Positions 13,471 through 47,314 of a stretch of DNA of 64,000 nt are shown one piece after another. Both the position numbers and the translations under genes were made by a program. The notes under the pieces were generated by a model. It was given only the letters and a program-made list of their open reading frames with translations, searched no databases and was not told where the DNA came from. Position 1 is the first letter of the stretch, and each line of letters opens with the position of its first letter. The DNA comes from an uncultured Candidatus Saccharibacteria bacterium (GTDB lineage Bacteria; Patescibacteriota; Minisyncoccia; Phycocordibacterales; UBA918), in the NCBI GenBank assembly GCA_964593375.1, contig CAZQIF010000001.1, positions 98,185-162,184 of the forward strand. Direction: 5' to 3'.

Positions 13471-13797
13471 TTAACGCATTGCAAGCGTAGGTTCCCAACA
13501 CGGAGCAGATGCGCTCCATGGTCGTGTCCCTTGCCGTTCATAGAGGTCACGAGCGTATGCCATATTGTCGTTGAGTTTCGTAAGATCAAGACCGAGTTTC
13601 TCTGCTTCAACTCCGTGGTAACGCGCATTGATTTGCATTACTCCAGTGTCTGCAGGATCTACTCGTCCTTGAAGAACTGACCCATCCGACAGAGTGTGTC
13701 GAAACGCTGATTCACAGCGTGCGATTTGAATCATGACAGGGATATCACTGAAGTAGGTGCGGACAGCCTTTTCTGTGTTTGTCCGTTCGCCCACCAT
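13471..13797 (-). CDS. Small lytic transglycosylase-like (SLT/GH23-like) protein
   Basis: IARCESAFRH is an ES motif and GVMQIN resembles a GLMQ-like motif. An in-frame upstream hydrophobic stretch (LILSSLLTAIIAVTNVVAVPVSDAAYG) lacks an ATG, GTG or TTG start. Confidence 0.45.
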   Translation of the reverse strand: MVGERTNTEKAVRTYFSDIPVMIQIARCESAFRHTLSDGSVLQGRVDPADTGVMQINARYHGVEAEKLGLDLTKLNDNMAYARDLYERQGTRPWSASAPCWEPTLAMR

Positions 13798-14191
13798 TTC
13801 TTCAGTGACCTGTTCGTTTGTTGCAATGTTCCCATATGCGGCATCACTAACCGGTACCGCAACTACGTTCGTTACAGCGATAATGGCTGTAAGTAAACTA
13901 GATAATATAAGCCTAGGGTCTTATCGAACAAATTTGCCTGAACGATTTTCAAACAAAAAACGGCGATATGCCGTTACCCCAATATAATAGCATATCTGGA
14001 TGAAAAGTCAAGTTATACAACTGATATTTTGGTGTGTCAATGCGCAAATAGTATATATTTTAAGCCATATTCTAAAATTTTGTCACGGTTTATAGCCCTA
14101 AAAAGCACTTTGAAACAAGAAAAATGCTTATTTTTTTGAGCACCAAAATATGGCTTATTTGCTTATCCTTTAGGAGTGCTCTCTTCCCTCT

Positions 14192-17074: not shown

Positions 17075-17190
17075 TATCATGCCAAAACATAGAAAATAGA
17101 ATATGGAATATGGAATAGTGAATATGAAAACGAGCGATTAGCTGTTAGCACCTAGCTCTTAGAGCTAATCGCTAAGTGCTAACTAACTAC
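17075..17190. repeat. Structured repeat element, copy C. It has a 7-mer tandem (aatatgg)x4 at 17099-17128 and the hairpin agcgattagctgttagcacctagctcttagagctaatcgct at 17133-17173, followed by a gctaagtgctaa word.
   Basis: Read directly. It shares words with copies A, B and D. Confidence 0.6.
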
Positions 17191-17780
17191 AACCACGGAA
17201 TCGAGAATTGCTCAAATTCAGGAACAAGTTTACGGCTATACAGAAGTCGTGAGATAACTTCAGCATGACAGAGGGCACCTGTAAGGGCATTGTGGGGTTC
17301 TGGTTCACTTTCGATGCCACAATAGTTGAGTACCGCGTCAAGATTAAGTGCTGAACGACGATGTTCGGGGTCTATTGGTGGTGTGAGTCCGTGATTTACC
17401 ATGTGCATGTAGCAAAGAGTATGGGTATCAATTGTACGATGTGCCAAATCCCATGCGATATTTTCACGGTCACACGCAGCTTTAAGATAATCACGGTCGA
17501 ATGAAACATTTTGCCCCGCAAGGGTGCGGTCACCCATATGCTGCGACCACTCGAGGAACATGCGTACAATTTCTCCTTCTGGTAACTTTTTTGGGTCTCT
17601 TGCTTCCTCCTCGGTAAAACCACAGACCGCGAGAGCCTCTTCCATTACATGGGCACCTTCCCACATGCGACATTCTTCATAAAAACGGTTTGTTGGATTA
17701 TCAAAATCAAGTGCGCCAATCGAGAGAATGGAGTGCTTTGCGTACTCGGTCCCCGAGGCTTCAATGTCTATGACTATCAT
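17187..17780 (-). CDS. DEDDh-type 3'-5' exonuclease (DnaQ/RNase T-like)
   Basis: The Exo I motif VIDIEASG is present, and HNALTGA is a likely Exo III region. Confidence 0.75.
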   Translation of the reverse strand: MIVIDIEASGTEYAKHSILSIGALDFDNPTNRFYEECRMWEGAHVMEEALAVCGFTEEEARDPKKLPEGEIVRMFLEWSQHMGDRTLAGQNVSFDRDYLKAACDRENIAWDLAHRTIDTHTLCYMHMVNHGLTPPIDPEHRRSALNLDAVLNYCGIESEPEPHNALTGALCHAEVISRLLYSRKLVPEFEQFSIPWL

Positions 17781-17916
17781 AGAGATAGCATAGCATAAAC
17801 GCGGAGGGACGCAGACAAGACGCGGATGTACGCAGAAAAGGATTTGGCTTAAATAATAATTTTTCTTATCACAAAATTGTGGAGTGCCAAATGTGCTTGC
17901 ACATTACCTACTGTGC

Positions 17917-17944
17917 TTGACATTAATCGTGAGTATGCTATGAT
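17917..17944 (+). promoter_or_regulatory. Consensus sigma70-like promoter, TTGACA-16 nt-TATGAT
   Basis: Exact -35 and near-consensus -10 hexamers were read directly. The promoter points toward 17950-18215. Confidence 0.6.
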
Positions 17945-17949
17945 ATTCG

Positions 17950-18215
17950 CGTTCAGGGACAGCAAACTCCTTGGGCAAATTTATAGAAATGTAGAGTTTG
18001 TGGTTCAGGTGTAAAAAGGAGGCTGGTATCCCCTGTAAAAACTACCTCAGCAGTTCAAGAGACCCGGAGCTAAGCATCTCCGTTTAAAGTGCCAATGTAG
18101 TACCCGGTCACCGCTGAGCTCGACTCCGCGGTGACCGGCCATCAATTCTAGTTCTAAGGACCAGTACGACCGCGCCCATTCATACCATATTCAACTGTGG
18201 TGAGGCGCGGTTTTT
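17950..18215 (+). ncRNA. Candidate stand-alone small RNA of about 265 nt. It has no ORF and contains the internal hairpin ccggtcaccgctgagctcgactccgcggtgaccgg. It ends at a terminator stem accgcgcc...ggcgcggt followed by ttttt.
   Basis: The assignment rests on a strong promoter plus a terminator and on the absence of coding potential. Its identity (6S, SRP or other) could not be confirmed. Confidence 0.35.
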
Positions 18216-18248
18216 ATATTTATATTGAAATTTTGTTACAATGTAATC

Positions 18249-18911
18249 ATGCGTGTCACTATTCATGATTCTTGGAAAAAGGTGCTTAAAGATGAATTTG
18301 AAGCTCCGTATTTTAAAACTCTTAGTGAAACTGTAAGAAATGCGTATTTAGAAAAAACTGTCTTCCCTCCTCCGAAGCTTGTCTTTAATGCATTTGAGCT
18401 CTGTCCATTTGAACAAGTAAAAGTCGTAATACTCGGACAAGACCCCTACCACGGTAAGGGTCAAGCACACGGGCTCTGCTTTTCAGTGCAAGATGGTGTG
18501 AAAATTCCTCCCTCACTTCAAAATATTTATAAGGAAATAAAAGATGATATTGGTAAAGAAATTCCTGAAACTGGTGATTTAGAAAATTGGGCTAAGCAAG
18601 GGGTGCTTTTACTTAACGCAACACTCACCGTAGAAGCCGGTCATGCAGGTTCTCACCAAGGACTCGGTTGGGAACAATTTACCGATGCGGTCATTAAGAA
18701 AATTTCTGATGAGAAGGAGCATGTCGTGTTTCTCCTCTGGGGGAAATACGCGCAAGGAAAAGAATCCCTCATTGACGCATCAAAACACCTCCTATTGAAA
18801 GCTCCCCACCCTTCCCCGTTTTCGGTACATACCGGCTTTTTCGGATGCAAACACTTTAGTAAAACAAATGCATATTTGGAGAAATACGGAATTAAAGAAA
18901 TCAGGTGGTGA
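18249..18911 (+). CDS. ung: Uracil-DNA glycosylase, family 1
   Basis: GQDPYH and HPSPFS motifs are present. The start is taken at MRVTIHDSW; the ORF itself is open from 18225. Confidence 0.9.
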   Translation: MRVTIHDSWKKVLKDEFEAPYFKTLSETVRNAYLEKTVFPPPKLVFNAFELCPFEQVKVVILGQDPYHGKGQAHGLCFSVQDGVKIPPSLQNIYKEIKDDIGKEIPETGDLENWAKQGVLLLNATLTVEAGHAGSHQGLGWEQFTDAVIKKISDEKEHVVFLLWGKYAQGKESLIDASKHLLLKAPHPSPFSVHTGFFGCKHFSKTNAYLEKYGIKEIRW

Positions 18912-18914
18912 AAA

Positions 18915-19035
18915 CTAGCACGTAGCTATTAGCACTTAGCCTCTGGATCGCTTCACTTCGTTCGCGTTGACGACCGGCGCGCGAAGCGCGCCGGTCGTTG
19001 CTAAGTGCTAAAAGCTAGGTGCTAATAGCTTATAT
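18915..19035. repeat. Structured repeat element, copy D. The outer inverted words are agctattagcacttagc / gctaagtgctaa..gctaatagct. The inner sequence is ctggatcgcttcacttcgttcgcgttgac followed by the hairpin gacgaccggcgcgcgaagcgcgccggtcgt.
   Basis: Read directly. It is homologous to the DR unit of copies A and B. Confidence 0.7.
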
Positions 19036-19659
19036 GAAAAAATTCTCTGGGAGTTCTGTATCAAAAATTTTTGTGAGAAGGAAATGTTTCTTTTCTTCGC
19101 TTTCTTTTGCTTGACGAACGGCGTCCATACTCAGCACATACCCTAGTGCAGGAGCTCCACTCACCGAATCGTACGATTTTTCCTCTCCGATTCGAATACA
19201 GCCAAGTGACTCGTAAAATACGCGATGCTTAGGGTTAATAGCAAAACAGAGGTAATCGTGTGCACTCACGAGTCCATATTGCACCGCAAGACCAAGAAGC
19301 CCGACTGATACATCAAGAACAGCAATGTGTGGGAATTCCTTAAGTGCCAATTTATTAATTGCAAACTGACATACCTCTCCAATCCGAGCACCCGTATCTC
19401 GATACACTCCAAGTTCTTCGCGGTACATTATATCCATCGGCACACCATGCATGTCAGACACTACGGAGATTGTGCCAAACAGTTGTTCATTGTGGCGCGC
19501 AATCATCGTCGTTGCTCCTGCCCTGCCTAAATATGCGCCAATGCCTTCATTGTGCGAATCATCTGGATTACGGTATCCCTCTTTAACATACACTTCATGC
19601 ACAAGTTGTAGTGAATCTTGCAAGTCATCTTCTGTGCACGCAACACTAAATTGAACCAT
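19030..19659 (-). CDS. GNAT-fold acyltransferase resembling acyl-ACP-dependent N-acyl synthases (LuxI / FeeM-like)
   Basis: EVCQFAINK can be compared with the LuxI-family E.SRFA motif. A VYVKEGYR region lies near the N-terminus. The gene is in an operon with a carrier protein and a PPTase. The assignment is tentative. Confidence 0.45.
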   Translation of the reverse strand: MVQFSVACTEDDLQDSLQLVHEVYVKEGYRNPDDSHNEGIGAYLGRAGATTMIARHNEQLFGTISVVSDMHGVPMDIMYREELGVYRDTGARIGEVCQFAINKLALKEFPHIAVLDVSVGLLGLAVQYGLVSAHDYLCFAINPKHRVFYESLGCIRIGEEKSYDSVSGAPALGYVLSMDAVRQAKESEEKKHFLLTKIFDTELPENFFI

Positions 19660-38910: not shown

Positions 38911-38986
38911 TAATTTGTCAGATTGACAAATTGCACCATTTGCTCAATAATCCATGCCAGTACTCTCACCAACAAAGGAGCTTCTC

Positions 38987-44557: not shown

Positions 44558-44629
44558 GGCCTCATCGTCTAACGGTTAGGACAGCTGGTTCTCATCCAGC
44601 AAATCGGGGTTCGATTCCCCGTGAGGTCA
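44558..44629 (+). tRNA. tRNA-Glu (anticodon CTC)
   Basis: A manually folded cloverleaf. The acceptor is GGCCTCA/TGAGGTC, the D arm GTCTAACGGTTAGGAC, the anticodon stem GCTGG/CCAGC with loop TTCTCAT, and the T arm CGGGGTTCGATTCCCCG. Total length is 72 nt and CCA is not encoded. Confidence 0.85.
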
Positions 44630-47263: not shown

Positions 47264-47314
47264 ACAATGTATTAATTACCCGCAAACTCTCTAGGGGACC
47301 CCTAGAGAGTTTGA

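Follow-up and report, generated by a model that had tools for sequence, protein, structure and literature searches.

A putative structured small RNA gene upstream of ung in a subclade of Candidatus Kaiserbacteria

Does the unusually long spacer in front of a bacterial uracil-DNA glycosylase gene hold a gene of its own? In the 64,000-nt stretch of DNA analyzed here (the window), a spacer of 468 nt (positions 17781 to 18248) separates a divergently oriented exonuclease gene from ung, and an earlier note had proposed that a stand-alone noncoding RNA is encoded there. This interpretation was supported by our comparative data, in which homologues were found to keep the promoter, two hairpins, and a terminator. 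Judging from sequence comparison, we consider it probable that the region is an independently transcribed, noncoding, structured small RNA gene of a subclade of Candidatus Kaiserbacteria (Paceibacterota, CPR). The RNA of about 265 nt is most likely a real gene common to three deeply diverged, uncultivated Kaiserbacteria lineages, and its product would probably serve as a trans-acting regulator or as a protein partner. The features of the locus are listed in Table 1.

TABLE 1 Features of the exonuclease-ung region, in window coordinates
Feature	Position	Strand	Basis or remarks
DEDD 3'-5' exonuclease, 197 aa (Rv2179c-like exoribonuclease domain)	17187..17780	-	Pfam PF16473, E = 3.4e-7
Imperfect 2 x 21-nt tandem repeat	17799..17840		TRF score 63, period 21, 2.0 copies, 85% matches
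Putative RNA-gene promoter, sigma-70-type: TTGACA (17917-17922), 16 nt, TG-n-TATGAT (17939-17944)	17917..17944	+	11/12 consensus positions, TG extension
Predicted primary transcript, ~265 nt	17951..18215	+	5' end placed 7 nt past the -10 box, 3' end at the terminator U-run (both inferred)
H1, 5'-terminal hairpin: GUUCAGGGA / loop CAGCAAAC / UCCUUGGGC	17951..17976	+	conserved block GGACA..AAACUCC
Variable central domain, ~124 nt	17977..18100	+	~135 nt in L044, ~47 nt in L010
H3, GC-rich hairpin: UAC-CCGGUCACC ... GGUGACCGG-CC	18101..18140	+	inverted repeat, conserved
Intrinsic terminator: 9-bp GC stem GACCGCGCC (18168-18176) / GGCGCGGUU (18204-18212), inner hairpin, then UUUUU	18168..18215	+	-21.6 kcal/mol
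Promoter of ung: TTTATA, 18 nt, TG-n-TACAAT	18213..18242	+	-10 box ends 6 nt before ATG
ung (uracil-DNA glycosylase), 220 aa	18249..18911	+	PF03167 in all homologues

Using the exonuclease gene as a synteny anchor, we gathered exonuclease relatives from 80 species-level loci in Kaiserbacteria, Paceibacterota, and Patescibacteria genomes. The start codon of ung was assigned to the ATG at 18249 and not to the TTG at 18225. In 21 of the examined loci, ung was divergent from and adjacent to the exonuclease gene, and the spacer between the two genes measured just 45 to 135 nt in 14 of these (for example, 58 nt in L002 and 51 nt in L142). Because most close relatives have such a short spacer, we regard the 468-nt spacer of the window as an insertion. 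Protein genes occupied the spacer in four further adjacent relatives, and the finding of unrelated protein genes at the same place in different relatives marks the exonuclease-ung spacer as a hotspot for lineage-specific insertions. The open reading frames (ORFs) seen there included a Nudix-like ORF (L041 and L046), a membrane-like ORF of 192 aa (L146), a 156-aa ORF accompanied by ClpP (L150 and L151; L148 has the beginning of this ORF), and a 132-aa ORF (L152), for which a weak PadR-like match was obtained. One of the short spacers (L005, 2866 to 3000, minus strand) contained a palindrome, GCGCAATTACTTTAATTTAATGCTATAGCATTAAATTAAAGTAATTGCGC, that is rich in AT, nearly perfect, and about 60 nt long. 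On the other side of ung, the downstream gene of the window (19030 to 19659, minus strand) matched the Pfam family FeeM, an N-acyl amino acid synthase (E = 1.8e-26), and is followed on the same strand by ORFs of 84 aa and 238 aa; a FeeM-type biosynthetic gene is unusual in a reduced CPR genome.

The signals that would delimit a transcript in this spacer had been described in the earlier note as a TTGACA/TATGAT promoter with a 16-nt spacer and a GC-rich stem followed by a T-run just before ung. Both were present as stated, and we additionally noticed the TG extension of the -10 box; the T-run spans 18211 to 18215. Taken alone, the promoter match is weak evidence, because the window contains five sites that agree with the sigma-70 consensus at 11 or more of 12 positions and 1.8 such sites were expected from Markov-simulated windows. 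An exact TTGACA -35 box was found at the equivalent place in four relatives (L044, L147, L010, and L149), with a -10-like box 16 to 17 nt downstream, and in all three full-length copies the RNA is predicted to start with a G located at the base of hairpin H1 or immediately ahead of it. The terminator sequence differs between lineages, with L044 and L010 carrying another GC hairpin and U-run at the same place. Among the remaining sites of the window that match 11 of the 12 consensus positions, one on the minus strand (14012 to 14040; TTGACA, 17 nt, TATAAC) faces about 215 nt without an ORF start, the next ORF beginning at 13797, and this region could hold a second small RNA or a long 5' untranslated region. 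The others lie at 38923 (plus strand, directly before a 133-aa ORF at 38954), 33905 (minus strand), and 53045 (minus strand). An intergenic inverted repeat, CAAACTCTCTAGGGG-A-CCCCTAGAGAGTTTG, whose 15-bp arms pair perfectly around a loop of 1 nt, was also seen at 47283 to 47313 and may be a bidirectional terminator.

To determine the distribution of the RNA, we searched the 80 species-level relatives with two models, a covariance model built from a single sequence (R1) and one with two modules (R2). Only L044 and L010 were matched, at the same syntenic site, and the RNA was absent by these models from the other 78 relatives fetched. When R2 was run over the whole window with filters off, it revealed no paralogue. 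Exact-protein contig look-ups (n = 12) led to further copies and, at several loci, to unrelated inserts. The copy in L147 is nearly identical to that in L044, and the contig of L149 ends 20 nt into the RNA, showing the promoter and the start of H1. A second copy of the window sequence (L001) was identical over the 470 nt compared, and a possible copy in L141 has only ATTTGGCTTA in common before its contig ends. A close strain copy (L154) holds the 3' 225 nt of the RNA; its first 70 nt contain eight differences from the window, and the following 269 nt contain none. It was not used as evidence, as the coverage of its contig is about 1x and mismatches are clustered elsewhere in it. With ung identities of 82% and 79% to the window, respectively, L044 and L010 are its nearest species-level relatives. 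The ung genes below the identity level of L010 are all without the RNA, apart from a tie at L155 (78.7% by tblastn, with a 45-nt spacer). The confinement of the RNA to the nearest ung relatives fits a single gain in one subclade.

Scans of larger collections yielded no further members. An exact-pattern search for the H3 hairpin, which would miss diverged members of the family, gave eight matches in IMG/VR, all of them weak (18 bits or less) and in GC-rich DNA, and 51 matches in JGI metagenomes, none above 24 bits, of which the three inspected were GC-rich protein-coding sequence. A blastn search against phage genomes returned one 31-nt chance match. The full-length copies share one layout, namely, TTGACA, H1, a variable middle, H3, a terminator, and the ung -10 box TGnTACAAT, and the recurrence of this architecture in other lineages is the strongest support for a real RNA gene.

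The degree of conservation was judged against the neighboring coding sequence. Between these lineages, identity at the four-fold degenerate sites of ung is 34 to 44%, which is near saturation, and identity in the spacer upstream of the promoter (41 to 57%) and in the middle of the RNA (30 to 57%) is likewise low. H1 reaches 67 to 74% and H3 68 to 84%, with hardly any variation in the H3 stem and the bases flanking it. This sequence comparison shows H1 and H3 as apparently under selection. The search in relatives that the earlier note had suggested led to homologous intergenic elements in L044/L147 and L010, as well as the 5' end in L149. Together with the window, L044/L147 and L010 provide three independent full-length sequences, and their stems carry compensatory changes.

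Folding of the plus strand gave a minimum free energy (MFE) of -91 kcal/mol (z = -3.85), and none of 200 shuffled sequences was equally stable; the minus strand folded less well (z = -2.45). The homologues were also stably folded (L044, ~245 nt, z = -4.45; L010, ~167 nt, z = -3.70). In H1, which has the stem ..GGGA/UCCC.., none of the six pairs next to the loop is broken in any of the three lineages, three of these pairs covary (CG/UA/GC, AU/AU/GC, and GU/GC/AU), and the CA-rich loop is conserved as CAGCAAAC, CAACAAAC, and CAAGAAAAC. The stable hairpin previously noticed in the region was recovered at 18104 to 18138 (CCGGTCACCGCTGAG / CTCCGCGGTGACCGG), with 15-nt arms that are 93% complementary and 5 nt between them, and corresponds in position to H3. 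The 9-bp outer stem of H3, CCGGUC(A/G)CC / GG(U/C)GACCGG, is flanked by UAC and (C/U)C and is identical in the three lineages except for one A-U to G-C double change; L147 has one C-A mismatch in this stem. The length of the inner part varies (17 versus 26 nt), but its self-complementarity is kept. Within the central domain, a small hairpin at 18065 to 18082 (CGGAG/CUCCG) is common to the window and L044, with two compensatory pairs between them. L044 and L010 do not conserve the long-range helices that the MFE fold places in this domain, the L154 substitutions break them, and from these sequences they should not be trusted. In total, we counted six compensatory pair changes (H1, three; H3, one; mid hairpin, two), a count that comes from just three independent sequences, which is too small a sample for covariation statistics.

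Neither a protein-coding gene nor a known RNA family accounted for the region. That it has no ORF of credible size was borne out by our analysis: the ORFs present are a frame of 45 aa that starts upstream of the promoter and two antisense frames of 38 and 32 aa, a Pfam search of these ORFs gave no match, and no reading frame is common to the lineages. The infernal search recommended in the earlier note was run with Rfam 15, which comprises 4227 models, including those for 6S RNA, SRP RNA, tmRNA, RNase P, riboswitches, and IscB/TnpB-associated RNAs. At the gathering threshold, the only match in the whole window was a tRNA at 44558 to 44629 (60.8 bits), and no family exceeded the threshold in the RNA region. 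Relaxing the cutoff to E <= 10 for 17750 to 18260 produced noise (mir-8489 at 16 bits versus 99, Termite-leu at 13 versus 51, and sR44 at 13 versus 45), and L010 and L044 gave only Hrs1, on the opposite strand, at 28.9 versus 56.4 bits. On the basis of this search, the RNA is not a 6S, SRP, tmRNA, RNase P, known riboswitch, or other curated family RNA, in agreement with the earlier failure to match it to the first four of these, and no description of this RNA was found in the literature searched.

The 2 x 21-nt imperfect tandem noted upstream of the promoter is real. It consists of four ACGCRGA motifs spaced at 10, 11, and 10 nt, sits between the exonuclease start and the RNA promoter, and contains, in its reverse complement, a -35-like TTGTCT for the exonuclease gene. 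The repeat was absent from all aligned relatives, including L141, whose exonuclease is 90% identical, which places it outside the conserved element. From this comparison, we regard the repeat as a probable local duplication in a fast-evolving spacer that does not belong to the RNA gene.

The position of the RNA directly in front of ung raises the question of whether the two are functionally linked in cis. A leader would be transcribed from 17951 onward, and whether transcription continued into ung would be decided at the terminator under the control of a ligand or a protein. Such an arrangement is suggested by the order of promoter, 170- to 270-nt structured RNA, terminator, and gene start 17 to 33 nt further on, which recurs in all three lineages, and in L010 the sequence CAGGGG (the 3' arm of a small hairpin) could pair with the 5' arm of the terminator, CCCCUG. 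However, this antiterminator pairing was not found in L044 or the window, and no Rfam riboswitch matched. The ung gene has an extended -10 promoter of its own 6 nt before its ATG and no Shine-Dalgarno sequence, so that its mRNA looks leaderless and read-through from the upstream promoter would bury the leaderless start codon. The TACAAT box before ung hardly varies among relatives, whether or not they carry the RNA, and such a leader is missing from most ung genes of the clade. Thus, ung appears independent of the upstream promoter and the RNA is absent from most orthologous ung loci, and we consider a cis-acting leader unlikely; more plausibly, the RNA terminator insulates ung from the strong upstream promoter. 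The exonuclease gene likewise appears leaderless, with a -10 box about 6 nt before its ATG and no Shine-Dalgarno sequence (17781 to 17800).

Alternatively, the spacer might be nonfunctional filler, that is, the remnant of a decayed gene or mobile element at a variable hotspot, in which the promoter- and terminator-like sequences are fortuitous or left over. The different inserts found in this spacer in different lineages, the unalignable central part of the RNA, and its narrow distribution are all in line with decay, but conservation of H1, H3, and the -35 box greatly exceeds that of the near-saturated neutral sites, and the stems show compensatory changes. Furthermore, translation of the spacer revealed nothing resembling the proteins that other lineages have at this site (the best alignment covered 12 residues at E = 5.8), and its ORFs were without Pfam matches. 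A MITE or insertion sequence remnant was not indicated either, as the element is present in a single copy in the window, lacks terminal or other flanking repeats that would point to a mobile element, and always occupies the same syntenic site; we therefore assign a low probability to decay. A still smaller one attaches to a DNA-level element, in which a regulator or recombinase would bind the H3 palindrome, and perhaps the 21-nt repeats as well, to act on the divergent exonuclease and ung promoters. The two halves of H3 changed together (A to G on the left and T to C on the right), as a dimeric DNA-binding protein would impose, and phased ACGCRGA repeats lie between the divergent promoters. 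Yet these repeats are not conserved, H3 lies between a conserved promoter, some 160 to 190 nt before it, and a conserved terminator, and the distance between its half-sites varies; this variable spacing and the self-complementarity of the intervening sequence fit an RNA hairpin and not an operator. The least credible reading, which the comparison largely refutes, is a small protein made from a noncanonical start codon. The Shine-Dalgarno-like motif that had been described as lacking a start codon was confirmed as AAGGAGG at 18016 to 18022, with no ATG, GTG, or TTG in the next 15 nt; an ATC 5 nt after it opens a frame of 19 codons, and very short frames begin at the 5' end of each homologue. 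Against this, AAGGAGG is not conserved (L044 has AAGAGUGG, and L010 is without the segment), the 5' frames of the three lineages are out of register relative to the GGACA..AAACUCC block, the ORFs found no Pfam match, and conservation tracks base pairing and not codons.

Returning to an independent small RNA gene as the preferred reading, transcription would proceed from the strong sigma-70-type promoter and start at about 17951, directly at the base of H1. The resulting transcript would consist of H1 with its conserved CA-rich loop, a middle that varies between lineages, and the highly conserved, GC-rich H3, and would end at the intrinsic terminator at about 18215, which would keep read-through away from the leaderless ung promoter next to it. 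Among the accessible sequences, CAAACUCC is conserved best; it extends from the 3' half of the loop of H1 into the first bases of the stem and contains an anti-Shine-Dalgarno-like CUCC, making base pairing at ribosome-binding sites the most economical mechanism. This conserved and partly exposed segment of H1 would then pair with target mRNAs, and H3 would stabilize the RNA or act as a protein-binding handle, two roles that its near-invariant stem suggests. We infer the function of a trans-acting riboregulator only tentatively. Sites complementary to the H1 loop and seed (GTTTGYTG, GGAGTTT, and similar) near the start codons of the window included nothing convincing, and RNAduplex predictions for each RNA against the 5' ends of the neighboring ung and exonuclease mRNAs were no better than those for shuffled targets. 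Two other ideas were examined and rejected: a CsrA sponge, as the four GGA motifs in 272 nt are about chance level, and a tRNA-like CCA after H3, which was found in the window only. Instead of an ordinary base-pairing small RNA, the molecule might form a subunit or the scaffold of a ribonucleoprotein known to date from this CPR lineage alone, a proposal to which we give little weight. The H3 stem with its UAC and CC flanks and the H1 loop would in that case be protein-recognition modules, the varying middle would carry lineage-specific specificity, and the adjacent Rv2179c-like 3'-5' exoribonuclease or a factor of the episymbiotic lifestyle might serve as the partner.

Among known regulators, the candidate RNA bears a general resemblance to RsaE/RoxS, Hfq-independent trans-acting small RNAs of Gram-positive bacteria. 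Like these, it would have a stand-alone gene with its own sigma-70-type promoter, an intrinsic terminator, and several hairpins, and a short conserved pyrimidine-rich segment (here CAAACUCC, with CUCC) could pair with Shine-Dalgarno regions. Unlike RsaE/RoxS, with which it has no sequence or structure homology and no Rfam family above noise to connect it, it is longer (170 to 270 nt) and holds its CUCC mostly in the H1 stem and not in the loop. The candidate also recalls 6S RNA (RF00013 and related families) in being stand-alone, strongly promoted, highly structured, about 200 nt long, and free of an ORF. However, MFE and centroid structures of the three homologues show a local 5' hairpin and a 3' terminator in place of an end-to-end rod with a central bubble, and no 6S family was recovered at E <= 10 between 17750 and 18260. 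Like terminator-type riboswitches and leader RNAs, it combines promoter, structured domain, and terminator directly in front of a gene, but ung keeps a conserved and apparently leaderless promoter, most orthologous ung loci are without the element, and no known aptamer matched. In its mode of discovery, it is closest to candidate structured RNAs from comparative scans of intergenic regions (PMC5737381), which are likewise defined by comparative sequence analysis alone in uncultivated or poorly studied bacteria. It differs in not being among the families deposited in Rfam 15 and in being known so far from three or four lineages only.

Together, these results point to a new, narrowly distributed family of small RNAs in CPR bacteria that is missing from Rfam. 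Its reach is limited to a few related lineages. We know of no experimentally characterized regulatory RNA in Patescibacteria (CPR), and the literature searched gave none. For annotation, the practical value of the finding is that spurious ORF calls can be avoided at this site, and the RNA is a candidate for checks in metatranscriptomes. CPR bacteria have tiny genomes in which noncoding DNA is scarce, and since an RNA gene of 170 to 270 nt appears to have been kept here while neutral sites became saturated, it may offer an entry point into RNA-based regulation in the CPR.
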